Shown one piece after another: positions 2,007 to 63,831 of a stretch of 64,000 nt of DNA. The DNA lies in the NCBI GenBank assembly GCA_015680685.1, contig MNCI01000986.1, positions 293,648 through 357,647 on the forward strand, given 5' to 3'. The first letter of the stretch is position 1. The number at the start of each line of letters is the position of its first letter. The notes under the pieces are model-generated. The model worked only from the letters and a program-made list of their open reading frames with translations. It had not been told where the DNA came from and ran no database searches. Made by a program: the position numbers and the translations under genes. The stretch comes from Gnetum montanum (taxonomy: Eukaryota; Plantae; Gnetophyta).

Positions 2007-2008
2007 AT

Positions 2009-2020: not shown

Positions 2021-2074
2021 CTAATCAACACTTCTAACCTAACAATTTATGTTGCATTCCTTTATTTCCTAGAC

Positions 2075-6825: not shown

Positions 6826-8939
6826 TTAATCATGTGGTAGCACATCTAACATTGGTGATAGTCTCGTTTGGATCATTTGGAGATGTATCGATGTGTTTGC
6901 TTCTTCTTCTTCTTGATTTTTTACTTTAATTCTTCGGTCTTCATGTTTAAGATCCTTTTCTGGTGTATAATCAGAGTATAAGATATATGGGTCTAAGTCC
7001 TCTGGTTGGTCCTTTTTCTTAATTATAGAACTAATAAGTGGATTAGTTGCCTCCATGCATTTTTGAAACAATTTTATATTCTCATTTTCAAGCCACTAGG
7101 TGTCTTTTGATTTAGTGGATACTACGTAGATTGGTTTTTGCTCATACACTTGCTCTTGAACTTTTTGTGTGTTGTGTTAATATTTTGAATTTCTAGCCCA
7201 CAAATTCACCCTTTACTATTAGTAGTGATGCATGGATTCTTTTGTCTCTCCACAGTGATAGGTTCATCATTTTTGTCAAATATTGGAGCAACGATGGATG
7301 TTGGCCTTTGCTTATGATTGAAGGATATTCATTGTGAAAGGAAGGTTGTTGTACTTGATTGGCATTACGCTGGTTTAGATTAGTTAGTAGGTCCATGAGT
7401 GTTGTGCTTATGCATGGGAACCTTCCTAAAGAAAGGATGTTTCAAATATTGTGGGGGAGATCTATTGGCATTATCATTTCTATGTATGTTACAACACAAG
7501 TGGCATTCTCTTGTTGATGTCGTGGTGCTAAACATTCCTATGTTGCTAGCAGTGACATATAGTGGAGGGAAGTATGAGAATATTGATGATATGATAAAGG
7601 ATGAGAGGTGTGAGGTGGTGACCTCATAGAAGATATTGTAGGATGATGATATTCGGGAGAGTGATAGTAGTGTTTTGAGGTAGAGGAAGCGGAACTAGTC
7701 AAGGAAACAAGTTGTTGAACATAATATTCGTATGGGTTTGGCTAGCAGTAAGGGTAATGTTGGTTTGACGATGGCCTCCCTTATGATTGTGGCTTTTTCC
7801 ACTACATTGGATGATAGTGTTGAGGCTAGTAAGAAGTCCCACTAGGATGGTACGATTGGTTGTAGGACTATATATAATTACCTTGTGAGAAAGGTAATTT
7901 TCTAGGCATTTGCTTTTGTACAAGCTTGGGATTCAATGTAAAAGCCCAATACTCATGTAGATGTAACATGACTAGGCAATATCCCTTCAAATGGTCATAT
8001 ATGTAGATGTCACATCCATCATCTTCTTCGGTGGTTGAGTCTATAGTTTCTTATTCTACAGTCAGTTCCCATTTCTACTGATTAGTGTTCTTACTTGTCT
8101 CTTTGTTCCTTTTCCTCCTTTTGTTGTGGTTACTTGATTTGTTTTGCGTTACTCTTCCCTCTATGATTTCTATGCAAGTTTTCTATGCAAGTTGTAATTT
8201 TAGCTTTATCTATTAGTGTCCTAGAAAAGAGCTTAAGCTTTTTCCACCCACTTTCAATGTTTTGTAAGATGCAGGCATCATAAAAGGCTTGCAAATGATT
8301 TTGTGGATCAGAATCATAGCCTCCCACAAATTTAGAGATGTTATTCATATCAAGCCTTTTGATGCAACTTTCCTTGCGATGCCTATGGGGTATTTTAGCT
8401 ACCTCTATGATCTGCATCATGCTCTTAGTGCTCAACAAGGATTCACTATCATTAGACACGTGGTAAAAATTTCTATTTATATTTATCTTGTTGTGACTAT
8501 TTTTTCTATGCTCATTTTTATGTCTTTGATCTTGCCCTTGTTTTCAATTTCTATTTTTATTTTGACCCCATAGTGGAGCTCTATCTCTATACCTATATGT
8601 TCATCTACATTAGAACTAGACATTGAAGAGGATGAGGAAGATGAGGAATGGAAGAGTTGCCATGGCTTCTATGGTGTTCCCCATGGTTCCTTGATTTATT
8701 TTTTCAAGGTTTTGAGGAGGTCCTAGGCCTTGAGGCCTCCCCTAGTCTAGAACTTCATCTCCTCTAGGATTGTTTGCCTTAGGTAAATGTAGTCCTTGAG
8801 TGTAGTTAAGGTGGTCATGAACATATGAAACTCCTACATGAGATTGGTCACTCCAATTTTCTTTAGTATATATCTCATTAGTACTCTAATGAATGTTCTC
8901 TCAATATGATGCATTGTCGCTTTCTTATGAGAGAGACAT
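6826..8939 (-). pseudogene. Athila-type gag (retrotransposon gag domain, CCHC-like knuckle, Pro/Gln/His-rich tail)
   Basis: ORF 8130-8459 contains KFVGGYDSDPQNHLQAFYDAC..KLKLFSRTLIDKAK. A knuckle remnant DGCDIYIYDHLKGYC lies near 7975-8020. Colinear with the gag at 55674-57850. Confidence 0.8.
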
Positions 8940-9062
8940 TTTTGTTAATTAGTGATGTGTGTGACTTAATATTTTCTAAAAGATAATTCAATAATCTATT
9001 TATAGTGATCGTGTGTGATATAACTAATCTAGATAACTAGCACCATCCTCAGCAATGACGCT

Positions 9063-9932
9063 GGCGAGGTACCCCCTATGCCCAACCATACGAATCACAA
9101 TCATTCCTATACGATCCAATTGAATCCTATGGATGGGACTAGTTGTGACATCTAGATCATTGTGCCTTGATTGTAGTTTGTTATCTTCCCACTTGGACTA
9201 GTGGTAGCTTTGTCATGTATGGTTTAGTCCAGAATGAGGCATATGATTCTTGATGTTGTTTTTTCCTTATGTTACTCCTAATGATAATAAAAAAAATCAA
9301 TTATTTAAACTAATTAATAGTGGAAAGTAAAGCCTAAACTAGCCTATGGATGATTAGTGTTTGTTCCTAGCTTGCTATGCACATCCTAAACCCACATGTC
9401 AACTTCTGGGATTACCAAGATGCTACTAGGTGAACCAAGCAATAATGCTACTAGGGTTATCAAGTGAATACGTGTTTACACTTGAAACTAGTTACATTGA
9501 TTCCACCAAATGATTAAGATGCATGGAAACATAAATATTAACTAAGCACAATAAAAGTAAATTACATGGAAATTAAATCTAATCTAAGTCAAAGTGCTCT
9601 AATGAATAATAATCAATCTTGATCTTATTACCATTCATGGAATGTGTCCAAGTACATTGCCACTCAAATAAGATGTCATACAATTGACTGAAATCCACAC
9701 TGTAGGCACCTACTGACTATTTTCTAAGACTACAGAATAAAACTGCAAGAGTTCAGCTGTCCTATTAACCAAAGAATGCCAATACACAGTGAAAGCATGT
9801 GTATTTTTAGGAAAAGAATAGATACTACATTGACGAGGCCTCATAAATGCAACAAATGCTATGTCGATGGGGCCTTGTAGAAGAGGCCATGTCAATGAGG
9901 GCCCATCGATGCAACACTTTGATGCTTCATCA
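9063..9932 (-). repeat. 5' LTR of Athila-like element 1 (about 8 terminal bases next to the PBS are missing)
   Basis: Direct repeat of 3672-4584. It is preceded by TCCTCAGCAATGACGCT, a decayed reverse complement of the tRNA-Asp PBS TGGCGCCGTTGCCGGGGA. Confidence 0.88.
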
Positions 9933-9937
9933 AAGTG

Positions 9938-23537: not shown

Positions 23538-24370
23538 TGATGAAGCGTCTTCCTTGGGTTGCATTGACAAGATGCTATTGACGTGTGGTTTGATGTGTTG
23601 ATGAAGTCCTATCAATGTAGTGTCTATCTTTTCCTATAAATACACACTCACCAGCTACATTTATGGTATTCCATAGTTAGTATCCTAATGAAGCTCTTGC
23701 ATTTTGTTCATTTGATAGTTAGAATATTTGCTAAGTGCTCATAAAATGAGTAAAAAGTGTATGGATCTTTATTCGAAAAATGATGTGACTAAGCACCTTG
23801 GTGTGATTAACAATAAAAGCTTTCTTCACAAACCTTGCAACATTTGGAATTAGCTTAATGTTTACTCAATACATTTATTATTTGAGAAATTTACTTTAAT
23901 GCACCAAATTAATTAATTAAATAAAAATTAATTAATACACATAAGTACGACCACTTTGAGCATACGTTAATGCCTAGTAATCCCAATAGCACCTAATGCT
24001 TGGTAACCCAGTAGTGTTGTTATGTGTTTAGGATGTGTATGAAAAGTGGGAACAAATGCTTATGTTAGGATTAGTTAGGATATTAGTTAGTTATTAGATT
24101 AATCAAACATTTAATTACTTTATTTTATTTTCTAGCACTTAGGTGATTTAAAAAATAAATATAAAATGATAAAAATTAGATGCCTCAGTTACACTTAACC
24201 ATATATTTGCACTTCATAAGTAAAACTGAGAAGACAATGATCACATATGTTAGATTCACTTTCTAGACATAGTGTACTTAGAGAGCTAAAGTCTACGGAA
24301 TTTGACCAGATCGCTTAGTGAATGCTAGTGCTTCATATGGTTGGGTGTAGAGATTGCTGATTGCTCATCA
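23538..24370 (+). repeat. 5' LTR of Athila-like element 2
   Basis: TG...CA termini; reverse-complement similarity to the LTRs at 30811-31725 and 44354-45237. Confidence 0.85.
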
Positions 24371-30810: not shown

Positions 30811-31725
30811 TGATGAGTGGCGAATAGACCTTACACCGAACCATACAAATTAGTAAGTGTTCACATGCGATCTAGTCAAATTCCATGGACTTATAGCCTT
30901 CTGAGTACATTGGTTTCTAAGAAGTGAAACTAACTATTTTAATTGTTTTCTTCTCAATTACACTTGTGAAATGCAAAGGTATGGTTAAGTGCAACTAAGG
31001 CATATGATTTTTATTATTTTTATGTTTTATGTTTTAAGTTGTATAAGGGTAAAGAATAATGCATAAAATAAAATAATTAGATCGATAACTGAATTTAACT
31101 TGCTACACCTAACTAATTCTAACATAAGCATCCATTCTCACTTGATATACACATCTTGAACACATTTAACACTAGCAAGTTACCAAATGTTAAGTGTTAC
31201 TTGGATCACCAAGCACTAAGCATATGTTCAAAGTGGTCGTACTTATGTGCTTCATTAACTGGTATTTAATCTAGCTTGATTTAGCTTAATTATTTAAAGA
31301 ATTAAAGGAAATTACATAAAACATTAAATGCATAAATAAACAATTAATCTATTTGAAAGTGATGTAAGGTTTATTAGAAAGCTCGTCTTTATTGCCACAC
31401 ACACTATCATGCTAAGGTATAATAGTGATCGAATAAAGATTCGTACACTCTTTAACTCCTACTGTAGACACTTAAAAAAATTATTTTAACTTTCAAGCAA
31501 GAAAACTACAAGAGATCTACTACAATATGACCAAAGATGCCATAAACATGATCGGTGAGCATGTATTTATAGGTGAAAATAGACATTGCATTGACAAGGC
31601 CATGTCAACAAATCAAATCCCATGTTAAGGTAGGCATGGTGATGGGGTCATGTCAATGGGGTTGTGTCCATAGGGCCACATCAATGAGGCCTCATCGACA
31701 GGACCCAAGAAAACATGATTCATCA
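30811..31725 (-). repeat. 3' LTR of Athila-like element 3
   Basis: Family-typical termini, TATA reverse complement (TATTTATA, ~31564) and U3 palindrome array. Confidence 0.85.
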
Positions 31726-31978: not shown

Positions 31979-34582
31979 TTAAAATGGTCCTAGACAGTGG
32001 AGGTTCTTGAGACTTTGAAGGAACTTCTCCTACTTCAAGCGCATGTGGTGGCTGAGGTGGTTGTGGCTATCTTGAGGCAGTTGCAACTTCTTGGGAAAGA
32101 TGGAAGGCATCCAATAGTACTTTCATCTTCTCCTTCTTACTTTTGGTATCATTCACAGTCCACACCACCTTGCAAATGTGGACTAGTGTGGGAACATCCC
32201 AAGGATAGGGCATTATCGGTAATAGCTCCTTCACATTAATGAACTAAATAGCAAAACATTTTCGTTCAACATTAAACACCTTGACTACATTCTTCAACTT
32301 TTAGTAGTCACTCATTCTCTTCGTTAGGTTCTCGGCTGTAGACCATTGATCGGTGAAGCACTACCTAATTACATTGAGTCTTTAATTTTCCACCTTAAGC
32401 TTCTACTTAGTGTCTTTGTGATGCTTGAACTCAGCTTTGTATAGTAAGTACGAACTAGCCACCTATTTCTCTAATTCAAACTACAACTATTTGATAGTTA
32501 GCATTGCTAGATTTGCATAGCAGAGATTGGCAAGCTCCATGAACTCTATCATGTCCTTGATTTGCCTCTCTTTCATGTAGATCTCCACCTTGTTGTAGTC
32601 ATTGAGCGCATCAAAAATAGGCTACCAGACATCACCTCCTTCCTTGAGTTATTGGAGGGCCTCATTAACTTTCACCTTCACTATCTAAATATGTTTTTCA
32701 TTGATTTATTTTTGTAGACCAATTTGATCTTTGTAGTGAATTTTAACTCTCTTAAATTTGAGAGCCTCATTTTTCTAGGTGGCCACCTCTATTATAGATT
32801 TTTTGACAAAGGGCCCAAACTTCCTCAATGGAGAGATTTATATTTTTGGTTGCCAATCTCCTTAGTTCAGTGTTTAGTCTAGCTAACTACTTCTGCTATT
32901 GATGGATGAAATCTTGCATTTGCTACTTTTGCACATCAACATTCCATAGGTAGTGATTTTCTATGATCATAGTAACCTTCTTCTAGTGAATTTGATTCAA
33001 GGTCTTTTGGATATTATGCATGGTAACATTGGCCAAGGATTGATCAACGATTGTTGTCTCCTTCACATTCTCAACCTTCTTAAGCTTTTCCTAAAGCTAT
33101 TAAAAAGCTTCATCACAAGTCAGTGTAGGGCTAAGAAATGCCAAATCAGCAAAGTGGGCCCTTAGTTTTGCTACCTCTATAGCCAAGCATTGGTTTTGAG
33201 CCTAGGCTATTTTGAGTTGCTCTTCCATGCTAATGCATTTTCCCTTTGCTTCCAATAGGTTTGACTAGGTTGTAGTGACTGTATCTGAAAGATCAAAGAC
33301 ATCTAAAATCAATTTCCTGATTCCCACTAGTTAGTCTAGTAACTCCTCATGTTGCGCTATGTTCAATTTACTGCTAACTATTCCTGTGGATGTCTGCACA
33401 TCTCTTAGTGTTGAACCATTTGGTATAGACACCATAGGTGTGTTTAATGCTTTGGTAATTCTATCAACAACCACCTCTACTACTGTCTCCTATCCATGGT
33501 GCTACATCACCAAGACAGTTGCTCCCTCACCCCCTCCAAGAGCACCGAGAAAGTAATGACATTCCTAGAGACTTCTAGAAATTGTTGTTGTTGTGAGAGA
33601 GAGATTGTTACCTCTTAAGTGCTAGGATTCGATCTTGTGGGCAGCTGCATTCTTTGAGTTGAGAAGATTAGCACACATCCTTCCATATAGCTAATGGTTT
33701 GAGCTAGTTCATTGAGGTGCCATTTTGCATAGTTTTCTAATGAGGTAAGGAAAGGGCAAGGCCTTTCTTCCATGTTTTTTTTTCCATAAGTCGCTTCTGT
33801 GTCTCCAAAAAGATTAGTTGTGGAAGATTCACAGGGAATTTCCCATTGAAAGTACCACATGCATGGGCAGAAAAGGCAATCACCTTACTAAACCTCATCG
33901 TTGGATTAAGATGATAGGTTCCTATCTTGAAATATACATGCTTCACTAGGGTGAGTGCACCATAGTCCTTGTAGTCTAGTCCATAACATCACTAGGTCTA
34001 CTCCTTCTTTGCCTCTAGGTCTACTTGTGTGAAGATCTCTATCAAATCTATTCCAATATTAGGGAAATCAAGGACCTGTGCAATATCCTCCACTGAGTAG
34101 GATACCTAAATCTCCTTGATCTTCACAGTGGCTCTTGCCTTCCTACCATTTTAGAAGAAATATGTCTCTTCCATGTACCATTCTCCATTGGAAGTGATGA
34201 TTGGCCACATGGGAGAGTTCTACAATGGTGCTTTGACTTTTGGTGGAGCATGTTCTAGGAATGATCCAAAGCTCAATTCTTAGAGAACTAAATGTTGGAT
34301 ATTACAAGGCTTGATCTGATCTAGGTAGGCTTGAGTTAATGTGACCTCAAGTCTTCGCACTGGTCCTGGTGCCTCATCCCAATGGGATTGTTTAATTATG
34401 GCCACTTTCTTGGGAATCCATTGGACAAATTCCACTTTAGGCTACTCCCAAAGATGTCTTGTTACATGAGTTTTTGGTGCTTGTTCTTGAGCTTGTTCTT
34501 GTTGCTCTCTTCTAACTCTAGGTTGTTTGTCCCTTGGTTGAAATAGTCCTCCTTCCTACATGTGTATTGTTCTAGGTGCCAC
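31979..34582 (-). pseudogene. Athila ORF2 ('env-like' accessory ORF): conserved N-terminal domain, long coiled-coil region and C-terminal PYPWDVP motif
   Basis: SPMWPIITSNGEWYMEETYFF*N, YFKIGTYHLNPT and MPYPWDVP are shared with 45440-47014 and 60042-62790. It occupies the slot just upstream of the PPT and 3' LTR. Confidence 0.75.
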
Positions 34583-35740
34583 ATGTAATCACAACATGAC
34601 CAAGGATTAGCACTTATTGTGTAACTTGAAATACTTGGAATACCTTATCTCTTAGGGTAGTTACACTTAGAAAAGTTGTGATCATGGTAGATTTGATTAT
34701 TTTAATATTATTTTATTATTATTTGATTAGATAGATTATTGCAGTGTGTTGGAAGGGTTTAACTCTCATAGGTTGATGATTTAATATTATTTTATTCATT
34801 AAACCCATGGGAGAGTTAGAAAAGTTCCATTTTTTTTTTCCAAAAACCTAAGGTTTGTCATCCCTGTGACATAAAGAATACCTTCGAAAGCTACAAGACT
34901 GAGGAACAAAGTGAATTGAACAAACAATTTAAAAGTTATGGGCTCTGGAAGATTTTAAACTTTGCAAAATTGTAATAACTTCCCTTAAATTTGAAGAAAA
35001 TGATAAAAAATTCCTAAGTGGTGGGCACTATATATAGAATTTTTTCCATGCATTGACTAGGCCTCATTGATGGGGCCTAGTTGATGTGGTTAGTTACATT
35101 AACTGGGCTTAGTTAACACAGATACTGATCCCTATTGACCAAGTAAAAATTAAAAAAAAAAATACAAAGAGCTTTTGAATGAGATTGGAAAAGTCCAAAA
35201 AGCCATGAACACAATGAGATACATGAAGAGGGCTTGAAATTTGATAAAATATGGACAATGATTGGAGAAATGCCTTAAGGAGTACATAGTTGGATGTAAC
35301 TGATGGGGTATACAAAAGATTTGATTGTCAAAATGTTCCTGGATAAGGGACTTAACTAGTCCAACCAAGAGCTATACAAGTGGATCCTCCCCATAGTAGG
35401 CTTATCCCCTTTTTTTGACCTTACATAGCCTCAACTAAGGAGTCCATGGGTCCCATAGTTGATTAATGGTTATGAAAAGTTAAGGACCAAATCTGAAAGA
35501 ATCTACTTAAGAATTTTAGCACATCAAACTAAGACATTGAACAAAAACATGAAAATCAGTAGTGAGGTGAGTTATGAAAAGCATTGATAGATGAGATAGA
35601 GATTGAAATGGATTTCCCAATCATGGTTGCATGAAGTCCCTTATGAATTTCATGGTTAAATGACCTGATCAAGTTCATCCTTAGTCTAGATCAAAACCAA
35701 CCAATTTTGATGACTTTGCATCATCACTCTAGGACCAGTT

Positions 35741-41864: not shown

Positions 41865-42030
41865 TGGCCCACCATGGCTTTAAACTAGCAATGTTATGGC
41901 CTGGAATGGCCTTAAACTACCATGGGGCCTAAAATGGCCTTAAACTATCATTGTGGCCCAAAATGACCCTAAACTAGCATGGGCCCTCCTGCTATGGCCT
42001 TAAACTAGCATGGGGCTCACAATGGCCTAG
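41865..42030. repeat. Tandem repeat of ~29 bp units (ATGGCCTTAAACTAGCATGGGGC...)
   Basis: Five to six copies of GGCCTTAAACTA(G/C/T)CA lying between convergent gag-PR and the antisense gene, an arrangement like Retand elements. Confidence 0.8.
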
Positions 42031-42229
42031 TTACATTATCACTGCATAATCTTAACTTAATGCATTAATCCATCGCATCACAACTATAGTAATCACAAAA
42101 GAAATAAAATAAAATAGAGTTTGCACATTGCACATATAGCAAACACATGTATTACATATCACGCAAATAGCAGTACATAGCATGAGCAGCATGAACAACA
42201 AAAAATACAAAAAAAAATGCAAAAATGCC

Positions 42230-44300: not shown

Positions 44301-44353
44301 CTGCAAAGAATATGAAGTGAACGTGGGATTGTGCCTAGATATTAAACCATAGC

Positions 44354-45237
44354 TGATGACCAGCGAGGTACCCGTATGCCCAACCATACAAATCACGAGC
44401 ATTCACGTGTGACCCAGTCGAATTCCAAAGACTACAAGCACTTATGTACAAAGAATTTTAGCTAGCAAAACCTTAGTTAGAGCAGTTGTTGTCTTCCCAA
44501 CCTTACTTGTGATATTCTAAAATGATGGTTGAGTGAGATTGAGGTAAATGATTTTTATAAGTTTTCTTTTTATCTTGAAATTCTAATTCTTTTAGTGTAG
44601 GAAATGAAAGGCTATATAATTTTACAATTACACTACTTTATCATTTAACTATTGCTCACATAAACAACCAATCCCATCCTCTGTGCACATCCTGAGCATG
44701 TCCTAACCACTACTAGGTTACCAGACATTAAGCATCATTGGGTTATCAAGTGTCAGATATATGTTCAAGATGGTCATGCTTGTGGTTCTCATAAACTATG
44801 AAAAGGACTGTAACTGTAAAGCCATAATAACAAAATCTAAAATTATTAAAATATTAAAATATTTTAATGCTTAAGTAGTTTAATCCAAATGCTGCAAGGA
44901 ATGTCAAAAATTTCATCTTTATTGTCCGTCATGCCAATGGGCTCAGGTACATTAGCAATCGAATAAAGAGTCGTATACTCTTCAACTCCTGCTACGAGTA
45001 CTTGGGAAATATTCTAACTTTTGTGGAAACAAAATACAAGAGCTTTTCTACAACTATATCAAAAAGATGCCACAAATGCTACGGGTGCATGCATATTTAT
45101 AGTAGAAGACAGACTCTTCGTTAATGAGGTCATGTTAATGCATGGACAGATGCGTCGATGGGGTTATGTCATTGTGGCCATGTCAATAAGGCTTAGTTAA
45201 CATAGCCCAGTCAATGCATCAACTGAACACTTCATCA
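44354..45237 (-). repeat. 3' LTR of Athila-like element 4
   Basis: TGATGACC...TTCATCA; homologous to the other Athila LTRs in the window. Confidence 0.88.
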
Positions 45238-45439: not shown

Positions 45440-47014
45440 TCTCAACCTTGCTGAAATGCTGAAGTTGCTAGAGAAGGTCACACAGTTCCTAGTGGCAGTG
45501 GTTCTGACGGGCCTTCACTAGCTTCTAGTGCACGTGGCGATTGAGGCATTGATGATGGTTACCTTGTGGTTGCTGCAACTTTTGGAGGTAATTAAAAAGC
45601 CTCCAAAAATGCCCTCATCTTGTCTTCTTTGCTTCTAGGATATTCACAGTCTAGGTAGCTTCGCCAATGTGTGCTGGAATAGGAACATCTCAAGGACATG
45701 GAAGTGCAGGGAAGAGTTTCTTCAAGTAGTGGCATTTCTTGAAATTTTAAGAAATAGTTGTTGGGTGGACACCATTACTTCTTGAACATTGGGGTCTGTT
45801 CTTGCAAGAACTTGTGTTCATGCAGCAGAAAACATCAGCCCTACTCTCTCTAGCATACTTACAGATCAAGCCACTTGTTCAAGATGGCTCATTGCAAGGT
45901 AGTACACTAAAGGGTCTTCTCCACTACCAGTTCCTATTGATTGCTCCTATTGGCTTAAGAATGATTATTGGATTTCACGTATGTGCTCTATGATATATGA
46001 AAATCTAACCTTGTTGCTTGTGCATGCAGTGGAGGTGGTTGTTGTTCTTTCCTTATTTATGTTGTGGCAGGAGTTTTGTCCTTCATCATCTCACACCACG
46101 AGGCAATTGGGGTGTGATGAAGTGTATCATTGGCATAATGTGCTATCCTTGCTTATTTGCACAATCTTTTAATTAGGTAAGGAAAGGGCAAAGCTCATCT
46201 TCCACATTCATTTTCAACAAATATTTTCTCAATTTCAAGAAAAAACAACTATGAAAAGTTTATGGGAAATTTTCCACCTAGAGTAGCACATGCAGGAGTA
46301 GAGAAGGCAGTGATCTTGTTGGGTCTTACTGTTGGATTTAAGTGGTAAGATGTGATTTTTGAGTAAACCCTCTCTATGATGGTTAATGTGTCGAACTCCT
46401 TACAGTCTACCCCATAGCACCACTTGATCCACTCCCTTTTCACCTCAAGGTCCACTTTTTTTGGAATCTCTACCACATTAGCCCCAGTCTCAGGCAACCC
46501 AAGAGCTTGCACGATTGCCTTTGCAGAGTAAGATACATGGATGTCCTTACTTCTTACTCTGGACCCCAGCTATTGATTTTTCTAGAAAAGATAAGTTTCT
46601 CCTAGATACCATTCACCATTGGACGTGATGATTGGCCCACATACGAGAATTTTGCAATTGGGTGTTGGCTTCTTCTGATGCATTTTCTAGAAATGGTCTA
46701 ACGTTTAATTCTTGAAGGACCATTCGTTGTAACTCCCTTGGCTTAATAGCATTAATACAAGCATGGGTTAGGGTGACCTCAAGTCGTGGTGCTATCGCTA
46801 GAGTCTCGTCCCCTTGCGATTGTTCACTAGGAACATCCTCTTCAGGAATCTAACGAACAGATTCCACGTTAGGTCCTTCGTAGAGAGGGCTATTTGCATG
46901 TGATCCCTCCACATGCTCTTGAGGTTATGCACCATATCCTCTTCCAGCTCTAGTTTTCTTGTCCCTCAGTTGTGAGATTCCTTCTTCCCTTGGATGCCTT
47001 AGTTTAGGTGCTAT
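45440..47014 (-). pseudogene. Athila ORF2, short form lacking most of the coiled-coil region
   Basis: ORF 46249-46512 (KREWIKWCYGVD..YSKITSYHLNPT) and C-terminal LPCP*DVP are shared with the other ORF2 copies. Confidence 0.7.
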
Positions 47015-49179: not shown

Positions 49180-52100
49180 CATATTGACTAATTGTGTTCT
49201 ATAGGATCCTTAGGTTTGTGTATAAGTATGGCCCTACATGGAAAGGTCTTGGAAACAATATAAGATCCCTCTCACAGTGTTTGAAACTTAGTACATTGTG
49301 GTACATGTGTGGGGTTCCAATAGAGAATCTTATCTCCATCTTGAAATGTTACCTTTAAAATCATAAGATCATGACATTTTTTATTATAGGCCTTATGCAC
49401 TTCATTGGATGATAGGGCTACTAATCAATTATCATCTAGCACATTCAAGTTGATGAGTCGTTCTCGTTGTGCTAGGGATAAGTCAAGACCCAAGTAACTG
49501 GTGGTGGATAGTGTTCAGAGTTTTTCTTGAATTGGAAGTTTTGGTAGTTTTCTGTACACTAAATCATAAGGAGAGTAGCCTATAGGAAGTTTCCACATTA
49601 AGCGGTAGGCCCAGAGGGCATCGTTAAGTTTTGTGCTCCAATCTCTCCTATATTTGCTAACGGTCCTAGTTAGGATCTTTGTAATCTTCTTATTTATGAC
49701 TTTGGCTTGCCCATTGGCTTGGGGGTAATAGGGTGTTGTAAATTTATGTTCAACCCCCAAGAACTACATGAGTTTATGAAAAGTAGTACCCATGAAGTGA
49801 GTGTTGTTATCTGAAATGAGTGCATGTGGCACCCCAAACCTGTTCACAATTTTCTATTGGACAAACTATGCAGTCATGGTTGAGGAACAGTCAATGACAG
49901 CTACTGCCTTTGCCCACTTTGTATAGTAGTCTACTACGACGATGATATACACCTCCCCATTGGACATGGGTGTGATGGATCCCACGAAGTTGATGCCCCA
50001 AATATCGAAGGGTTCAAGTGGCTGAATTCACTGTTGAGGTCCCTCCATTCTTGTCATCATCCCACCATCTCTCTGACATTGTTCATAAGAGTAGATGAAC
50101 CATTAAGAACCTTCAAAGAGTGTAGGCCAATAGTAGCCTATAAGTAGGATCTTAATGGCCATGCACCATCTAGCATAATGGCCCCCACAAGGGCCCTCAT
50201 GAGCATCTTGAAGGATGTGCAGTTTATCCGCATCAGGGATGCACCATTGAACCAAGCCATCCATACACACCTTGTAAAGGTGTCCATTGATTTCCATGAA
50301 GTACTTGACTTTGTGAAGAAATTGTTATTTATTTCGATGATCCCACTCCTTTGGTAGCTTTTGTGTCAAAAGATAGGTAAGGATGTCGCCAAACCAAGTT
50401 GATCTTGTGGGCACTTTCTTGGCAATTGCTCCAACGAAGAGGAGTTCATCTGGAAACTAATTAGAGAGTGGCTCCTCCTCCTATGTGTGGTGCCATCGTA
50501 ACTGAGACAAGTGATCAGCAACCACATTCTCGATCCCCTTTTTGTCCACCATAGTAAGGTCAAATTCTTGAAGAATCATGAGCCACTATATTACATGGGG
50601 ACTTAGCGTTGGTTTGTTCATAAGGAACTGGATGGCACTATGGTCAGCATGCATAAACACCTTGTATTTGAGCACATAGTGTTGGAACTTTTCCAAGGTG
50701 AACACCACCACCATTAATTCTTTTTTGATGGTAGTGTAATTGAGCTAAGCACCCATAATGCTTCAGCTTGCATAGTGGATGTAATATGGACATTTTTGGT
50801 CATCCAACTGTGTCAGCATAGCTTCCAATGCATAATTAGACGTATTTTTCATGATGTGAAATGGTCTAGACTAGTCAAGTGTTTGTAGAATTAGAGTCTC
50901 TATGATTTTCTATTTTAGTGTTTGGAATGCAAACTCACATTCCCTAGTTTAGACAAACAGAGCGTCTTTCTTTGTTAGTTCCACCAATGGCATGGTGATC
51001 TTTAAGAAATTCTTGATGAAGCATTGATAGTAACCAATGTGTCCAAGGAATGACTGGACATCTTTTACAGTACCTGGTTGACTAGTGATTCCTTGGATAA
51101 TCCTAATTTTTTTAGGATCCACACTGATCCATGCTTGTAAGATTTAATTCCCTAGAACAATGTCCTCTTAGACCATTAAGTGGATCTTTTGCAAGTTGAG
51201 CCATAAATTATTTTCCACACATATTTTTAAAACTTGCTCAAGGTGGTCCAAGGCTTGCTCAAATGTTTCTCCATAGGTGGAGAAGTCATCCATGAAGACT
51301 TCTACACCATTGCCAAGCTGTTGCTGAAAGATGCTAAGGACAAGGTGTTGGAAGGTTGCAGGTGCATTGCATAGGCCAAAGGGCATCTTCTTATATGCAA
51401 AAGTCCCCTGGGGACTTGTAAATGTTTTCTTAGCATGGTCTTCAAGAACAATCTAGATTTGGTTATAGCCACTATAACTATCCAAGAAGCCATAGTAGCA
51501 ATGCCCCGAAATGGTATCCAACACTTGGTCCACAAATGGAAGTGGGGAATGATCCTTAAAAGTTACCATATTTAGTAATTGGAAATCTATACAGACTCTC
51601 CATTTGCCATCCTTCTTTTGCACAATAATGAGTGGATTGACCTATTCACTATCTACAATGGGATAGATGAATCCTGCTTTTAGCAATTGTTCAATTTTAT
51701 CTTTGATGATTTGCTTAAGTTTGGGATTCAATTGTCTTTGTGTCTATCATCATGGCTTCATGGAGGGGTTGATATAGATCCAATGTTGGCATACCCTAGG
51801 ATCAACTCCTATCAACTTAGGATATGACCATGCGAAAGTAGTCAACCATTTGTTCACCATCTTTAGCAGTCTTTTTTTTTTAGAAGCAAGAGTGGCATTG
51901 ATTATTACCGGCTTGCCATTTTGCAAGAATGCATATTCCAGATTGGCCAGTAAGGGTTTTAGTTCTAGGTGTTCCTATTTAAATTTTTTAGGGATCTGCA
52001 ACTTTCCCCAATTAGCATTGTCATTAATAGTGGAAAGTTGTTGATAGACTTATTCCAATTCATCCATGCTTTCCATATAGGCACATACAAGGCCTTCAAA

Positions 52101-52750
52101 GGATTCCATGCATATATTGCTACTATTAGAATTAGTGGTCAGCCACTAGGTGCCTTCCTGGTTAGTGGCTATTAGATACAAGCATTATTGAATTTGTGAT
52201 TCTGCAGCACATCGACTATATGCTTGAATGGATGCCCAATTAATGGACCAAAGTTACTGCACATAGTTGCACTCGGAATCACTGTATGTGATGCATGGAA
52301 CATGCTTCTTCTCAATCTTCCCAAAAGGATTTTCCTTTGAAATTTCAAGGGAAAGATCTCGGAGTCCCAAACATGCATCCACCATGCTGAGCCAAGCTCT
52401 TTCCATTATAATCAGAAAATCCCCCTTGCAATTATCAACACGGATGACCATGAAGTCAGCAGGGTAGGACCACCCACAAACAATGGTCATAATATCTTCT
52501 ACCAATCCCAAGGGAACCGTAATGGACTGGTCTGCTAGCTTAAGCCAAATGTTACTTTTCTTCAATAGGGGCAAGTACCAAGTCTTGTACATATCATGTG
52601 AAATCAAGTTGACACCTGACCTTGAATCCAAAAGTGCTTTGCATGGCTCGTTTCCTACCACTTGGAGGTATATGAGGGGACTCCATAGATTAGTCAATTT
52701 TCGAGGAAGATGACCTACCTTTATCCAGTCCATTATAACATGTGTTAACA
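49180..52750 (-). pseudogene. Athila pol: protease, reverse transcriptase, RNase H and integrase (degenerate)
   Basis: PR KALLDSRSGVNL; RT WRVCIDF..LN..KDHSPLPFVDQ, MPFGLCNAPATFQ, VFMDDFS; IN HEGPCGGHY, PFDIWGINFVG, ISDNNTHF, YYPQANGQAKVINK, DWSTKLNDALWAYR. Order is PR-RT-RH-IN. Confidence 0.95.
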
Positions 52751-53362
52751 TGATGGTTTGTACTTTTGGAGGTGTTTGGCTTGAAGGCTGCTCAAAGGAT
52801 CGAGTGGTAGAGGTGATTGGAGATTTAGAGGCACTAGCCATAAGTGAATGTGAGGGCATGTTTGGGTTATTGGGCTAGAAAAAGGAACGTTTCCATGGTT
52901 TTGATTCTGGCCCACTTGGCTAAGAAGCCAGTTGTAAATTGACAGCCCTTGTGGCATTACATTACTGTGGCTATGGTGGTATTTCTCCCTGCATAAGTGG
53001 AGCAAGAGGTAGTTGAGTTGAGGGTTGATGAGTAGGTATGGCAAGAGAAGATGGCGGAGGATAATGTAGATGTGGGTTCTTCCCCCTAGGTAATGAAGAC
53101 TAGGTTCAAAAGTATTTTGATGGATAGTAATGATTTTGGAAAGGTGCATGACAAGAAGAGTCTCACGGGGAGATTGGTTGTTGAACGTAGTACCCATAAG
53201 GATCTGGCTCCTGGTAAGGGTACAACTACCTTGGAGGTGGCATCCCCCATGATTGTGGGTGCTTCCATTACTGGTAATGCTCATAAGGTTGTGAGATGGG
53301 GGATCTCACAAAAGAGATCATGATGATGGGGGATGTTCATATTGGCAAATCACACCTCTCAT
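52750..53362 (-). pseudogene. C-terminal gag remnant of element 4
   Basis: Homologous to 26500-27070; ends at the zinc-knuckle codons at the fold-back junction. Confidence 0.7.
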
Positions 53363-54744: not shown

Positions 54745-55548
54745 CAATGAGTTGTGATTTGATGGGCCCTGACATTGGATACCCGACATCACCTCATCTG
54801 GATCTTGCCTATAAATACTGCACTTGGGCTCTCAGATGAGACAACATGTAGAACATAGGACATAATTTTAATTTTCAGTTTCTTCTATTTTAAGTCTACA
54901 TTTCTAGTGCATGCATGTAGCATGATGTTTGTAACCATATGAAACCTTTGTTTGAGTGTGACATACTTAGACATGTTGCATGATTGGCAATAAAAATTGA
55001 GATTAATCCCATCATTGCATCATCTACTTTGATTAATATTGTTGCTTTAATTATTTATTTTTTTCCTTAAACATTTCCATTTATTGTTATTTATTATTCC
55101 TATTATTAAGTGGAATGTATACACCTTAATCATGAGTGTGTAAGTGTAAATACTTGGTAATCCATAGGTGTATCATTTGGTACGACTAGTGATGTACACT
55201 TGGCAATCCATAAGTAATCTCACAAAGTCCAAGACATGTACAGATAGTTAGGAGAAAATACCATCACCCATAGGCTAGTTAGATTTTTTTTTTCCATTAT
55301 TCATTAGTTTAATAATTCATCTATTTATTGTCATCAGGAGTAGTGTAGAAATTAGATAACATCATATGCCTCACTCTGGAGTAAACCATATGTAACAAAG
55401 CTACCACTAAAGTGGGAAGATAGTGAACTATGATCAAAGCATAACAATCTATGTGTTACAACTAGTCCCATCCATGGAATTCTACTGAATTGCATATGAA
55501 TGCTTGTAATTCATATGGTTGAGCATAGGGGTACCTCACCACTTGTCA
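54745..55548 (+). repeat. 5' LTR of element 5 (terminal TG mutated to CA)
   Basis: Direct repeat of 62980-63826; TATAAATA at 54810. Confidence 0.9.
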
Positions 55549-55673
55549 TTAGCACCATTACTGGGGATGGTGCTAGTTATCTAGATTAGTTATATTATAC
55601 ATAACCCATGTAAAGGAATTAATGATATATCTTTTAGAAACTCTTCACTCACTCACACCATAAACCCAAAACA

Positions 55674-57850
55674 ATGTATTTTTTACATGGAAGTGACTAT
55701 GCACTATATAGCGAACACATTCATTGGAGAAATAATAAGATATATGATGAAGAAGACTACAATGATCAACCTTATGCAGGGGTTTCTTATGATTATGGCC
55801 ACTTTAACAGCACTCAAAGACTACATTCACCCAAGGTAGACAATCTTAGAGGAGATGACATAGGTCCTAAACTAGGGGAGGCCTCAAGGCCTAAAACCTC
55901 CTCAAAACTTGGAAATGATAAACCAAGGGACTTTGAGGAACACCATAGAAGCCATGGTAATTCTTCCAATTCCTCATCTTCCTCTTCCCCCTTAACATCT
56001 TGTTCTAATAAAGATGAACATAGGTATAGGGATAGAGCTCCATTAAAGGATCAAACAAAAAACTGGAATTGAATCCATAGGAAGAGTCAAAGAGGACACC
56101 ATGAACATAGGAACTTCCCTCATAATCTGTTTGATGATGATGAACCCCTGCTGGCCACTTGGAGCCTAATGCATATTACAAAGGCCATTAAGATATCTCC
56201 TAGGCATCACAAAAAGAGTCATTTACCCAAGCTAGACATGAATAATATTCCAAAATCTGCAAGAGGCTATGATTTAGATCTACAACATCATTTACAAGCC
56301 TTCCATGATGCTTGTGCTTTCTACAACATTGAAAGTGGATGGTAGAAGTGTAAGCTCTTTCCTAGGATACTAATTGATAAATCCAAAGTGTGGTATTAAT
56401 CATTGAAACCACATTCAATCCGATGGTGGTCAACAATGTTAGAAATTTTCAATGAGAGATACCAAACCTATAAGAGAGTGTCCTACCTAAGGAGAAAAAT
56501 CCAAGAGTGGAAACAAGAGCAACATGAACCCTTGAACATGGCCTTAGATAGATATTATGCCTTGCTAAATAAATGCCCAGGCCATGGTTTCTCTAAGGAA
56601 GAGAAACTTTACCACATCGTAGATGGGCTTCATAATGAAACAAGGGAAACCCTTGGGATGTATGCCCTAGGGAAACTATATGAGCTCCAAGCCCATCAAA
56701 TCAAAGAGCTCATAGAGCATATGGCAATAGAAGAAGGAGAAATGTGTAAATGGAAGTATGTTGAAAAACATCAATGGGACCCAACTCTTCAATCGAAGCA
56801 AGTCCAAATTTATGGTAAGGGAAATGAAACTACCTTTGATAAGGTGATCCCACAACAAACTTTGCCAATAAAGAAGTCTCTGGATGATTTAGAAGCAAAA
56901 TTTAATAGGATGTCTAAATGGATAAATGACATCATGATAACTCTTGTTAAGATGATCATAGAGAAGCTCATGCAACACAAGCCAGGTAATCACAATCAAT
57001 AGAGGATATAGAACCAAGCAACAACTAAGGACACTTTTCGGCAAATGAGAAAAATGGTTGACGAAAGTAAGGCTATATACTCCATTGCAAAAAAAGATGA
57101 TGGATGTAGCCTATTCATATATGACCACCCAAGGGGCCAATGCCCTATATTATTGCATCTATAGGAGTATTGGGTAGGTGCCTTAAATTTGAAACTTATG
57201 CAAAAGCACATGAACAAGAGACTTCCTCTCCCACAAGGTAATTTTAGATAGTCCCACAACCAATCATACCATCCTAGGGGGACTTATTACTAGCCTCAAC
57301 ATGATCATCAACTATAGTGGCAACAACCATAGTCATGGGGGAAGCCACCACCAAATCAACCATACTTGTCAAAACCTCATGGATATTATGTTCAACACCC
57401 TATTTCTCCAACTAGTTGGGTGTTCTCCACTTATAATTACCACTACCACTCTCCTAAGTATCATCAATACATGACATTCCCTGAAGGATCACCACCTCAT
57501 GCCTCTTACCATCCCACCTACCCTTGATATTCTCATAATTCACCTCCTTCAATGCCATCACTAGTAACTCAGGAAGGTCTAGCATCCCAATATCAACAAA
57601 CAAATGTCACTTGTGCTACGAATGTGCATAGACATGCTGATCCCAATGGGTCCCAACTACAACATCAAAAATGTTCCTTCTGGAGGAAAGCTCGTAAGCC
57701 AAAGCAAACCATGCATGAATCCACCACATCAACTAAGCTAGCACAAGGTCAATCTAGTGCACCACCTTCCCTTCCTCAACCAACGTCCTTCAGTTATACA
57801 CAAGGGCCACTATCCATTAGTACTTGAATCCCACATCCAACCAATGAATC
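55674..57850 (+). pseudogene. Athila gag pseudogene of element 5
   Basis: ORFs 55674-56072 and 56403-57002 (KPHSIRWWSTMLEIFNERY..LLNKCPGHGF..IVDGL) and knuckle remnant DGCSLFIYDHPRGQCP. Confidence 0.85.
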
Positions 57851-59445
57851 TACAAATATGGGAAGATAAATAAATCCATGCATACCACCTCATAATCAAG
57901 GGTGCAATCATGGGCCAGCCATCCATAATGTTCACACATCCTATAGCTTGACCCACCATACATATAACCATCAAGTGTGTCACCAACAATTTTTCTGCCA
58001 ATCCACCACACCATCAATAGGCACCTAGTGGCTAGGGCATGAAGGGTTCCCAATGTTTTATACATGCATGGATCCTATTCATCCACTTACTAATCCTAGT
58101 CATGACCAAATGTTTAGTCATTGGGATTACCCTCCATTATAATCTTTAGGATTTTTAAGTGTTTTTTCCTTTTTTGTTTTATAATTTTTTTATCATTTTC
58201 CTATTTCTTATACTTTTTTCTAGTTGTGATTTTAATTTTCTTGTATGTATTCTTGCTATTAATCATGTTTCCCATTGAGGTGAGGTTTTCTCTATGTTAT
58301 TGAGTCACAAGGGACTGATTATTTAGACATTGAGACCACGTCATCCATCCACCCATTCCATTAATAAGAGGTTCTTGCTCTAGTCATGATGGTAATCTTT
58401 TTCATCATCCAAACTCTAAATAACTTCATAATCATTGTGTTTGGATGGAAGAGTGCAGAACCAAGAAGGAATGTAATAGGTACGACATCAAGGGGATTTG
58501 TGGACTCTCTTTGGCTACTTTTGTGAGTTCTATTATGTTGCTGAGGTTGTAACCATATCCTTGTTGATCGAAAAAAATGGAAGTAAGAGCAACCTCACAT
58601 GGCATTGAATAAGCTTCTGTGGGTCCCACTAGAAAGACATGTACCCATGCCTAAAGGTTGGTAGCTTTATAGAACCCATCAAAAAACAATAATTGTGCCA
58701 TAATAACACTTCTTCCTTGGACAAAACACCAAGTGATGTTACTCCTTGCAACTTTAATAGTCTTATGATTATCTACTAATGAGATGAAACAATGCAGTGT
58801 CACTAAAAGATGGTTTGGACTCAATTCAAAGGTTGGAAAGATGGACACATGACTATTTAACCATTAATAACACCCAAGGTTTCATTGTTACATAGTACAA
58901 CATCTCATGTCCAGATTCCTATGATCCCTTCTACAATCCATCTCATATTATTGTCTGAATGCTCATAACTTGTGGTTTTATGTAACATAGAGTTGTTATC
59001 TCAATTCAGTGGTTTTAACATGTGTGTTTTGTTTCATAGGTAGGTGTTACATTCAACTCTAATAGTTCCTACAGACATTATCAGCATGATTACATAAGGG
59101 CATCATAAGCTAGAACTTGCTTTAGGAAGGATCGATTTGTGTAACTTTTGTGACTTGTACTTGTTTAACATGACCACATCATTTTTCACCTTTCATAAAC
59201 TCCATTTGTTATATTTTATTGTTTCCCATATCATATAATTTGTCCCATAGTCATGCTTTCAACACCCTTTTCTTGCTTGTTCTTGTACTTTTCATGTTAA
59301 CGACTTCACCTTATCCTACTTTCAGTGCCTCCAATTAATTTTCCACTTACCCAAATTGCAAAATTTAACTTGCAATATTCCAATCAACCCTAGAGCTTCA
59401 ATTTGCATGTCTTTTGGCCCCATCAAAATTGAAATTTTTGGACCT

Positions 59446-59487
59446 TGATGTCATGTACCTGACGTCGAGTTTGTACAAGCTTATAAA
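59446..59487 (+). promoter_or_regulatory. Putative internal ORF2 promoter (two CGACGTCG-derived palindromes 14 bp apart, then TATAAA at 59482)
   Basis: TGATGTCA at 59446, TGACGTCG at 59460 and TATAAA at 59482. The same geometry occurs at 35029-35086 and 47429-47486 on the minus strand. Confidence 0.55.
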
Positions 59488-60041
59488 CACAACCCCCACG
59501 ACACTTAGAACTTCATTTTTCTCATTTGATACTAGGGAAGTTGTTGAAATTTTTTCTCATGAGTTAGAGCTCTACGCCTCCATCTTCCACTTGTGATATC
59601 TAGCTCTCTAATGCTCTAATTTCTGTACCATTTCAATCTATCTAAACTTGGAGTGTTCAACTTAGTCGTGGGAGGTGCGTGCATGCAAACCTTATGTCGA
59701 TTTGTTAAAATTTTCTATTGCCTAGAAGGTATTCTAAGGGTAAGAATGTTAAAAACCTTAGGACTTATAATGAAAAATCATTAATGATAGCACTAGACAT
59801 CCAATTTTTCTAACCCTTGAGCCTATAACTGTTATTTTAAGCCCTAGATAATGAAAAAGGAACCAATCATGATGGGTCATAGAAGAAATACACACTTTTT
59901 GGGGGATTTTTCTTGAAACTTTTCCTAACCCTAAAATCATATGCATAATGAGCTTAATGAACTAAGGTTATGTGTAAGGTATGAATGGATTAATGATAAT
60001 AAATATAACCTTGGTAACACTTGGTTTTTGCTTGATTACAG

Positions 60042-62790
60042 ATGGCCCCAAAAAGAGGTTCTCACAGTGAACCCTTATGGAGAGCCACTAAGCATCCACA
60101 TGATGGTGATGACTAGCAAAGAGAACATGTGGAACATGTTGAACAAGAGGCCCAATGTTTCAGTATCCATCAAGAGGCCCTTGCTATTGGGCAATTGGCA
60201 CAAGGTGAGGTAGTAGAAGTATCAGCTCCTAAATAGGGACAACATCTCACATTGTCCCCTGACTGCCTTGCTGCCATCTTGGAAAAGTCCACATTGGCCT
60301 CGATGATTTTGGAAATGAACTTTAGCTTGTTCATGAAATTTTCCCCATAAGTGATGCAAATGCAACTCAAAACATCCCCATTGTGGCCAATCCTATCAGA
60401 CAATGGTGAATGGTACCTAGGGAAAGGCTATCAATTTTGGAACAATAAGGATGAAGGTACCACTATGAATATTTGTGGGATGAATGTCTCTTACCTAGTC
60501 AAAGATATAGCTCTAACTCTTAGCCTACCTAATGAAGGGGCCAAGGCTGCTCATCTATCCACTAGATCTAATCCTAAAACAAATAGACTATGGTTGAGGT
60601 GGGCATACAACAAAGAAGATAAGTCATACAATGAGATGACTTTGGAAGAGAGAACCTACTTTAAGATTGGGACGTACCATCTATTTCCTACCAAAGGGCT
60701 CAATTGAATCTTAACTTATGCAACTAGAGGAAGTACCATTCTAATGGAAAAATTTGTAGTTAACCTTCCCCAATATTACTTCACAGAAATCCAATAGTGG
60801 TTTAAAGAAACAAAGTTAGGGAGACCAACACTCCCATTTTCTTATTTGATCAGAAAGCTATGCAAGCATGCTAGAATCTTGGGATATACCAATGCTATCC
60901 CTAGAAAGGCTTAGCATGCCTCCTTCACAGAACTTCTAAAAACCATAGCACCAAGAAAAGATTCTAGTGAGGAGTAAGAAGCCAAAAATAAGGTAAAACT
61001 AAGAACAAAAATGCAACAAGAGCCTGAATAGCATCTACAAGCATAGGCTCAGCCATGACTACCGTAAGATTATAGACTGTCAATGAGCCACCTATAGAGA
61101 ATCGCTAAAACCATTAGCCGGGAAAGCAGGAATGAGGCCAATCTCTTCCACATTATGGATGATGTTGTACGACCCACTATATCAACCAATCTAACACAAG
61201 GAGAGATCTTAATTCAGTTAAAAGTAGGGGGATTCCAAACGTTATGCCAGATCTCTAGAAACGTTGCATCCTTTCAAGTCACCTTGGAAACTAGCAAAGG
61301 AACCATAGTTGTGGTGCTACAACATGAGGATGCAATGGGAATAATAGAGGTGATCACTAATCACATCAAGGAGTTATTTAATGTTCCTATTATGCCTTTG
61401 ACCAATCTAGCAGGAACTAGGGATGCACAAATGCTAGTCGGGACCTCAATGACTCTTATAGTGCATGAGGACGTGCTTGATTGTTTGTTGTAGATATGTC
61501 AAGTGATGACCACTTTATTTGACATCCCTAGTGATTTCACTAGAACACAGTCAAACCTCATCACTACCAAAGGAAAGTTGGTCATGGTTGAGGTTAGGGA
61601 AAAACATGCAAAAGCTAAAGTACATAGATTACAAGAAGAGCTAGCTAATCTGCGAACTAAATGATAGGATCCTACCTGATTTTTCATGCTTGACCAACTA
61701 AAACAATTTCGAATAGAAGAGCTTGCCAAGCTAGTGAAAGAAATAGCAGCTATAGAGTAGGAAAAGGAGATGGTGGTCTAGAATGCCTCCACTACAGATG
61801 TGCAAACCCATGTGCATAAAAAGGCACTGATCACCACCCAAGAAGAGAACAAGCAACTCATCATAGAGAATGCCTAATTGACCATAGTGGAGAAGCAAAA
61901 GAACATTTTGAAAGAGAGTGTCCACTAGTTAAGAGAACAACTAGTGAGGATCAACCAAGATATGAGTAGATTGGCCCAAGAAAATAGAACCCTCTCTATA
62001 GAGAAGGTACGTGCTATTCGTTAAAAGACAGCAATCAAGATCAACACATGGTAGAATGAGGCCAAGAAACATGAGAAGTTAAAAGAGAACCTCCATGACT
62101 AAGTTGGCATATATAAGGAAATTAATGAGATGGAAATCAAGATGGCCAAGGGCCACATCAGCTCCTTGGCAATGCAAAATTTTGAATGGCAGGCCATTTT
62201 GAATAGTTATGCCATGGTCCAACAAGTGGAAGTTAAAAATAAGGATCTATAAATAGAAGATTTGAAGGAATACATGTCATTGGCTAACCTCAGGTATGCC
62301 AACCTTACCATGTTAACAATAGATCATCCCCGAAGTGACTTGGAGAAGTAAGTGACAACCACCTATGCACTTTATGAAAAAGAGTTTGTAGATTGAAAAG
62401 ATGATTTGCAAAAGTTACAAGTGGCAAACTCAGAATTGGAGGTGGTCAAAGCTAGTTATCAAGGATAGAAAGATTTAGCCTCAAACCTAGCTCAGAGATT
62501 GATAGACTATCATGTGCTAAGAGATAAAGCTAGGGCTTTTGAGGAAGAACAATGATAGTTCGTGACATGGTACGTAAAGGTAAATCAAATGTTTCTATAG
62601 CTACCATGTCCTTGGGATGTACCAATGCCAACAAACATCATCATAGCAACCTAGATGATGCATGACCAAGGACAGAGGAGGAAAAATTGTAGGCCTTGCT
62701 CAACTGTTACAAATTTTAGTAGCCTGATGATAAAGGGAAGTGGCCAATGGAAGAGTCACCACCTCTAGGCACTACATGAGCTTTCTAATC
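60042..62790 (+). pseudogene. Athila ORF2 of element 5
   Basis: TTACAG|ATGGCCCC start; ORF 60351-60707 (SPLWPILSDNGEWYLGKGYQFWNN..YFKIGTYHLFPT); E/K/Q-rich coiled-coil-like region at 61600-62550; LPCPWDVP at ~62600. Confidence 0.78.
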
Positions 62791-62979: not shown

Positions 62980-63826
62980 TGATGAGTTGTGATTTGATGG
63001 GCCCTAATGTCAGGCCTAATAACTAACATTGGATACTCAATGTTGCCTCATCTAGATCTCACCTATAAATACTGCACTTGGGCTTCTGGATGAGACAACA
63101 TGTAGAACATATGGAATAGTTTAAATTTTTAGTTTCTTCTCTTTTAAGTCTACATTTCTAGTGCATATCCATAGCATGATGTTTGTAACTGTATGACATC
63201 TTTGTTTGAGTGTGACCTACTTGAACACATTACATGACTAGCAATAAAGATTGAGATTACTTCCATCATTATAGCATTCACTTTGATTAATACTATTACT
63301 TTAATTATTTAATGTTTTTCTTAGTTAAACATATTCATTTATTGTTATTTATTGTTCCTATTATTAAGTGTTCCTATTATTAAGTGGAATGTGTACACCT
63401 TAATCACAAGCATGTAAGTGTAAATACTTGGTAATCCATAGGTGTATCATTTGGTATAGCCAATGACATACACTTGGCAACCCAGAAGTAATCTCATGAA
63501 GTCCAAGACATATACAAATGGTTAGGAGCAGATACCATCACCCATAGGCTAGTTAGATTTTGTTTTCCATTATTCATTAGTTTACTTAATTCATCTCTTT
63601 ATTGTCATTAGGAGTAGCATAGAAATTAGACAATAACATATGCCTCACTCTGGACTAAACCATACATAATGAAACTACCACTAGTCTAAGTGGGAAGATA
63701 GCAAAGTGCAATCAAAGCCTAATAATTTAGGTGCCACAAATAGTCCCATCCATAGAATTCAACCAGATTGCATGTGAATGTTTGTAATTCATATGGTTGA
63801 GAATAGGGGTACATCATCACTCATCA
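62980..63826 (+). repeat. 3' LTR of element 5 (contains a private 16-bp tandem duplication at 63355-63386)
   Basis: TGATGAG...TCATCA followed by the TSD GCCAA; TTCCTATTATTAAGTG x2. Confidence 0.9.
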
Positions 63827-63831
63827 GCCAA

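Follow-up and report, generated by a model that had tools for sequence, protein, structure and literature searches.

Matching CpG-palindrome arrays before the LTR and ORF2 promoters of Athila-like elements in Gnetum montanum, with ORF2 as a candidate reader

Elements and arrays at the locus

We analysed 64,000 nt of Gnetum montanum DNA (contig MNCI01000986.1, positions 293,648 to 357,647, forward strand), here called the window; coordinates below are positions within it. Its composition is plant-like (GC 36%, CpG observed/expected 0.22, CNG 0.36), and it consists of nested old long terminal repeat (LTR) retrotransposons, among which five related gypsy elements are relevant to the arrays described here. 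An array comprises two to eight copies of an 8-bp triple-CpG palindrome, placed just upstream of the LTR TATA box and again upstream of an internal TATA box ahead of an extra open reading frame, ORF2. Two words were found, A (CGTCGACG) and B (CGACGTCG), and within each type the LTR and internal words agree.

Elements 2 and 5 are complete, each with a 5-bp target site duplication (TSD); divergence within the LTR pair is 0.21 for element 2 and 0.17 for element 5 (Kimura two-parameter distance). Elements 3 and 4 retain the 3' LTR, ORF2 and the region upstream of ORF2. An earlier note on this DNA had described arrays in elements 3, 4 and 5. All of the words it cited are present at the positions given and the three assignments stand, but its list was incomplete, with further A arrays in the elements at 3672-9932 and 23538-24370. 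The relevant features are as follows:

3672..9932, minus: element 2, complete and non-autonomous; TSD CACTT; A-type arrays in both LTRs (9828-9924, 4447-4563)
23538..24370, plus: 5' LTR of a truncated element; A-type array 23562-23617
30811..31725, minus: element 3, 3' LTR; A-type array 31589-31700
32133..34582, minus: element 3 ORF2, broken and frameshifted
35029..35086, minus: element 3 internal A-type array (35051, 35065, 35079) and TATA 35029-35036
44354..45237, minus: element 4, 3' LTR; A-type array 45119-45216, TATA 45094-45101
46015..47014, minus: element 4 ORF2, broken N-terminal part; PF20167 match of 23.5 bits
47429..47486, minus: element 4 internal A-type array (47451, 47465, 47479) and TATA 47429-47436
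49464..52769, minus: element 4 pol, with reverse transcriptase (RT), RNase H and integrase in gypsy order
54745..55548, plus: element 5, 5' LTR, mosaic by sliding identity, crossover near 55225, downstream part element-2-like; TSD GCCAA at 54740-54744 and 63827-63831
54770..54791, plus: element 5 B-type LTR array of two units at a 14-bp period, separated by 18 nt from TATAAATA at 54810
55549..55568, plus: element 5 tRNA-Asp primer binding site (PBS), decayed (compare the PBS in the available text of PMC2844528)
56352..56633, plus: element 5 gag domain PF03732, E 7.7e-10
59446..59467, plus: element 5 internal B-type array, two units, period 14
59482..59489, plus: element 5 internal TATA-like box, 14 nt past the array
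59729..60041, plus: element 5 predicted leader intron, from donor-like GAAG/GTAT to acceptor-like TTACAG directly 5' of the ORF2 ATG
60042..62768, plus: element 5 ORF2, a single frame of 908 codons interrupted by 31 stops
62980..63826, plus: element 5, 3' LTR; B-type units at 63005, 63024 and 63038, TATA 63064

Element 5 has gag and ORF2, while pol was undetected in it by domain search. Within the complete element 2, neither ORF2 nor pol nor an internal array was detected; its U5 is similar to that of element 5. A decayed Asp-type PBS also follows two other 5' LTRs. In element 4 the zinc domain of integrase follows RNase H after only about 110 residues, and Pfam matched RNase H just once, although decay could hide such a domain (aRH) elsewhere. 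An extra aRH domain is the criterion for Tat elements and is missing from Athila, according to the available text of PMC6317226. The tRNA-Asp primer site, together with RT, RNase H and integrase in that order and no additional RNase H, points to the Athila clade.

The arrays were scanned as word pairs, tolerating CpG decay and at most one other mismatch per pair. At a 14-bp period the window holds 17 A-type pairs, against a mean of 0.3 and a maximum of 1 in 20 order-3 Markov simulations, and 16 of the 17 lie inside the five A-type LTRs and two internal promoters. The remaining pair (40980), inside another element's protease region, is probably due to chance. B-type pairs number three (null mean 0.3, maximum 2, again 20 simulations), and all are in element 5, at 54770/84 and 63024/38 in its LTRs and 59446/60 in its internal promoter. 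This decay-aware scan bears out the earlier claim of 14-bp-period arrays before both TATA boxes. The LTR coordinates given earlier for elements 3 and 4 are correct for the 3' LTR of element 4, but not for element 3, whose array is at 31589-31700.

One simulation reached two B pairs, so that the B count is only modestly above chance window-wide; the strength of B lies in its placement. With seven units and three pairs, the B-type array could in principle be a chance reading of decayed sequence. This is highly improbable, as all three pairs occupy the positions of the sister elements' A arrays, A words are missing there, and B words occur in the U3 of other copies. These further B-type units were found in the U3 of contigs from related organisms, making B a family trait. 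Depth of the related contigs was low and similar at element 5's U3 and internal-promoter bins and up to about 200-fold higher over its U5/gag bins; the pattern would suit a B block that is less common, but as depth does not measure copy number it was excluded from the evidence.

Next, all 256 8-bp palindromes were ranked in 10 promoter regions (seven A-type and three of element 5). A ranked 1-7 in the seven A-type regions and 29-46 in element 5, and B ranked 1-3 in element 5's three regions and 21-80 elsewhere. Of 37 A units picked by hand, 35 have T..A at the non-CpG positions 3 and 6, whereas all seven B units have A..T, a count that is partly circular because units were selected by motif. 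The gap from array end to TATA was 17-18 nt in 7/7 LTRs (one box decayed) and 14 nt in 3/3 internal sites, correcting the 18-19 and 15 bp given before. The earlier note had read the second word, correctly placed at both sites of element 5, as a permutation of the first. A 3-bp register shift is excluded by the constant position relative to TATA; the change from A to B is instead a symmetric swap of two non-CpG bases.

The internal promoter and the mosaic LTR of element 5

Flanks of the internal promoters were 0.43-0.57 identical to those of the element's own LTRs, compared with 0.49 +/- 0.05 for random pairs. This random-level identity indicates that the internal promoter is not a recent copy of U3 and rules out its origin as a wholesale U3 duplicate. 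Beyond the internal TATA, a donor-like GAAG/GTAT occurs 155-247 nt downstream at the equivalent place in all of elements 3, 4 and 5; this 8-mer has seven occurrences in the window. In element 5 a leader intron upstream of the ORF2 ATG is predicted from these sites. Athila6A of Arabidopsis has an internal promoter and an intron for its ENV ORF (PMC4977677, available text), and the internal TATA and the donor- and acceptor-like sites of element 5 fit that promoter and intron. Purine tracts resembling polypurine tracts were also seen 3' of the internal TATA, at 59667 in element 5 and 47266 in element 4.

Element 5 is an LTR mosaic. Over the last 300 nt its LTRs differ from element 2 by 0.06-0.07 transversions, compared with 0.04-0.06 for sister LTRs. 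The promoter half, in contrast, is more distant than that of any other element, at 0.28-0.36 transversions from all remaining LTRs, and the two parts meet near 55225. The first bases of its LTRs (54745-54746) are CA in the 5' LTR and TG in the 3' LTR, a pattern expected from CpG decay.

Internal array, ORF2 and U3 are contiguous in genomic RNA. A single template switch can therefore move all three, and co-segregation of word and ORF2 independent of gag is expected even without co-evolution. Given this linkage and the element 5 crossover, such co-segregation is rejected as proof of co-evolution. Linkage is nevertheless insufficient to explain why arrays separated by 3.5 kb and set in unrelated flanks have the same word, which needs either a shared trans factor or short-patch copying. 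Of the ORF2/operator module proposed earlier, the arrays have proved real, fixed relative to TATA, matched within families and internally missing from the one complete element that lacks ORF2, while the co-segregation test suggested for it is confounded.

ORF2 as a candidate reader of the arrays

We suggest, with a probability of roughly 0.45, that the arrays are family-specific operators bound by a dimer or oligomer, for which the ORF2 protein encoded by the element is the most likely candidate. In this scheme ORF2 would activate transcription from the two TATA boxes, yielding the genomic RNA as well as the spliced mRNA predicted for ORF2 itself. During reverse transcription, a template switch would have fused the 3' block of a distant B-type family, comprising internal promoter, ORF2, U3 and R, to a 5' part resembling element 2, so that word and ORF2 would travel together. 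Selection by one trans factor would have kept the LTR and internal arrays alike, and copies without ORF2, such as element 2, would keep the LTR array and be driven in trans. In favour of ORF2 are the complete, ORF2-less element 2 without an internal array, the word match between promoters whose flanks are at random level, and the constant TATA distances. The weight given to ORF2 also reflects the arbitrary nature of the words, which, being family-specific, would be more readily explained by a reader encoded in the element than by a conserved factor of the host, and published observations, each from the available text: predicted localization to the nucleus of a PF20167 protein from sunflower Athila (PMC11728184), predicted VANC-like pentamerization of the Athila domain (PMC13547354), and hypomethylated LTRs in one sunflower Athila clade, whose authors put forward this idea too (PMC12844716). 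As a further step beyond reading the arrays, ORF2 may counter silencing.

Host transcription factors are a less likely alternative. Families would then change word to tap a different host factor, and ORF2 would share the design for co-expression with the genomic RNA. The constant TATA distance suits this, and the B word contains an ACGT core, the A word contains GTCGAC and the A spacer resembles GGCCC sites, which may correspond to bZIP, CBF/DREB and TCP motifs. The words, however, vary widely and arbitrarily among plant families, and dense CpG sites would be methylated. For the similar arrays of Sireviruses, the authors preferred host stress-factor sites, but in the available text Bousios 2010 found no single factor (PMC2829016).

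Copying without a reader appears less likely still. Palindromic units would duplicate, short patches would be carried from U3 to the internal site or back, through conversion or template switching, and any function would be structural (hairpins, or a source of small RNA). The centre of the 6-bp spacer is TA in 3/3 B spacers and 0/23 A spacers, so word and spacer co-vary as a 14-bp unit. A single element can have LTRs that differ in unit number, element 5 clearly shows recombination, and palindrome-sized indels and hairpins are described in Sirevirus LTRs (PMC4728375, available text). Against this, the flanks are without homology, the TATA gap is kept separately for each promoter class, and the internal array is gone where ORF2 is gone.

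We then considered the ORF2 protein itself. That of element 5 has a basic N-terminus and a charged, helix-prone C-terminal half low in Pro and Gly. As to the transmembrane helix of a retroviral-type envelope protein, its highest 19-residue Kyte-Doolittle mean is 1.52, with no strong hydrophobic helix in this decayed frame. As noted earlier it is the most divergent ORF2, though modestly so, being 37-38% identical to those of elements 3 and 4, which share 46%. Word-based homologue searches with the window ORF2 gave zero matches, PDB sequence searches were empty, and HMMER against 1.84 billion representatives gave two matches, both short fragments; these ORF2s are very distant. No Pfam match to VANC or MAIN (plant mobile domain) was obtained. 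The best locus match of the window ORF2 profile was a true PF20167 ORF (E 0.0086).

To look at other plants, metagenomes were scanned for the Asp primer site, giving at least 111 loci; the counts that follow are among the matches listed. A word cluster of at least five in 350 nt was present in 21 of the 56 loci with at least 700 nt upstream, compared with 1 of 40 simulations. Several of the clustered words are CpG palindromes just 5' of a TATA-like box, with one word per family. Eleven Athila-like loci were informative, having gag or protease downstream and non-coding sequence upstream, and for these the word was taken from the LTR side alone. In four of them (L005, L006, L014, L066) the LTR-derived word clusters internally beyond any of 23-24 other loci. 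These four represent three families, each with a different word, so the sharing of a word between LTR and internal site does recur outside the window. Of the seven negatives, six have LTR clusters of only 2-3, which is the null level. L043 was scored as a miss, its internal array resembling a separate inverted-repeat insertion. Left out of the 11 were L036 and L045 (LTR-side clusters but no downstream gag; misses in an earlier tally), L032 and L079 (coding sequence upstream), and L080, L008, L044, L056 and L069 (less than 700 nt upstream).

Several points weigh against ORF2 as the reader. The linked 3' block leaves the window as one independent contrast, and elements 3 and 4 carry the same word despite their 46% ORF2 identity. 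The co-variation of spacer with word fits whole-unit copying or a longer binding site equally well. Only 17 of 132 array CpG slots survive (13%, against a rough 5% elsewhere in the LTRs), as expected of copies long methylated, so lasting protection is unsupported. Matches to PF20167 are weak, at 18.4 bits in element 5 (60579-60878) and the 23.5 bits of element 4 against a cut-off of 45, and hhalign of ORF2 with the bona fide PF20167 alignment gave a probability of 17% (E 0.0014). Pfam searches detected no DNA-binding domain in ORF2. Both AlphaFold models had low confidence (pLDDT 44), and Foldseek with such a model gave no match; these two results are counted here but are uninformative about the fold rather than evidence against one. 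ORF2 mRNA of Athila is elsewhere described as spliced from full-length RNA (PMC7197481, available text), and the motifs of VANC are not CpG palindromes as the window words are (PMC5735166, available text). Among the informative loci, seven of 11 lack a shared internal word, the LTR cluster of L005 is three, the null level, the available sequence of L005 and L014 ends before ORF2, and in L006/L066 the shared word precedes ORF2 by about 1.4 kb and is remote from the probable TATA box. L066 does have a PF20167-like ORF, with both arrays distant from the likely TATA boxes.

The scanned loci and the window yielded further observations. About 6200-6900 nt past its primer site, L066 has a tandem of ~39-bp units, each with an inverted repeat, and the tandem word recurs in the LTR and just 5' of the PF20167-like ORF, which is at least 555 codons long. 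L056 has, 2400-3980 nt past the primer site on the opposite strand, a nested element with two CCGCC/GGCGG palindrome clusters directly 5' of a PF20167-like ORF. CpG arrays were undetected in the Asp-primed family of L048 (4334-5644; related L039 and L063), whose 3' region carries pieces of a LOG-like gene (PF03641, E 4e-37) and of a viral nucleic-acid-binding-like one (PF05515, E 1.4e-6). The PBS scan of viral contigs gave no matches. In the window, element 2 is hosted by a copia-type element (159-13410; LTRs about 159-833 and 12713-13410) with integrase-like and RT-like stretches in translation. Element 5 is inserted into a fourth ORF2 fragment (53882-54724, plus strand), which adjoins an inverted gag-region duplication (52966-53293 and 53555-53881). 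More nested elements lie between element 3's internal promoter and element 4 (35800-44350), including a protease-like stretch (40966-41223) and 26-29-bp tandem arrays at 37800-37890 and 41898-42028.

Comparison with known systems

A broader proposal, which we hold tentatively and at less than even odds, is that the PF20167 'env-like' protein is no envelope but would recognise a specific DNA sequence, acting as an activator or against silencing, and would co-evolve with a CpG-palindrome operator of its own present at each of its promoters. It would be the retrotransposon counterpart of VANC and TnpA, with operator, ORF2 and U3 forming a regulatory cassette swapped between families by LTR recombination. 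The role of the extra ORF of Athila has been a question for two decades, and a family-specific word at a constant distance from both promoters names a candidate target, with the two-base A/B switch as a built-in specificity control. If ORF2 does read the arrays, one of the most abundant lineages among plant retrotransposons would encode a regulator for itself, and the RM boxes of Sireviruses would be expected to work in the same way. If it does not, the arrays are a promoter design reached convergently in copia and gypsy elements, and a warning that 3'-block linkage mimics co-evolution.

The window elements are neither Sireviruses nor VANDALs. VANDAL VANC (PMC5735166) and Spm TnpA (bioRxiv 10.64898/2026.08.24.746577) are similar in having family-specific short motifs repeated in non-coding DNA beside an accessory gene, but, in the available texts, they belong to DNA transposons, have motifs other than CpG palindromes and have experimental binding and demethylation, whereas the window elements are LTR retrotransposons.

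The closest layout is that of the Sireviruses, in which element-specific CpG-rich palindromes are found upstream of the LTR TATA and the same word before the extra ORF, with a putative function (PMC2829016, PMC4728375, available text). A palindromic CpG word repeated before the LTR TATA and the extra ORF, as in the Sirevirus RM boxes, is found in the window elements too. Sireviruses likewise have no internal copies without the extra ORF (PMC2829016, available text), for which element 2 is the one case here. By the same sources, Sireviruses are Ty1/copia elements with a CGG-CCG core and 8-32 copies per element. In contrast, the window elements are Ty3/gypsy, with words lacking that core and spaced on a 14-bp lattice; they have a defined internal TATA, and families in one genome differ by a two-base switch of the word.

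The Athila env-like ORF (PF03078 ATHILA ORF-1, PF20167 Transposase_32) shares with the window a 3' extra ORF, an internal promoter, a leader intron (predicted here) and an Asp-primed gypsy element; a shared LTR/internal operator word is unreported in the passages available from the sources concerned (PMC4977677, PMC7197481, PMC11728184). Nor were shared Athila words reported in a full-text literature search, which mostly omits subscription papers and supplements, or described in the available text of a cranberry preprint and of the 2026 transposase preprint (bioRxiv 10.64898/2026.08.24.746577). The novelty suggested by the earlier note is therefore narrower than the layout: as far as the available texts go, the layout itself is already published for Sireviruses (PMC2829016) and the internal ORF2 promoter for Athila6A (PMC4977677), while shared-word arrays in Athila are apparently new.

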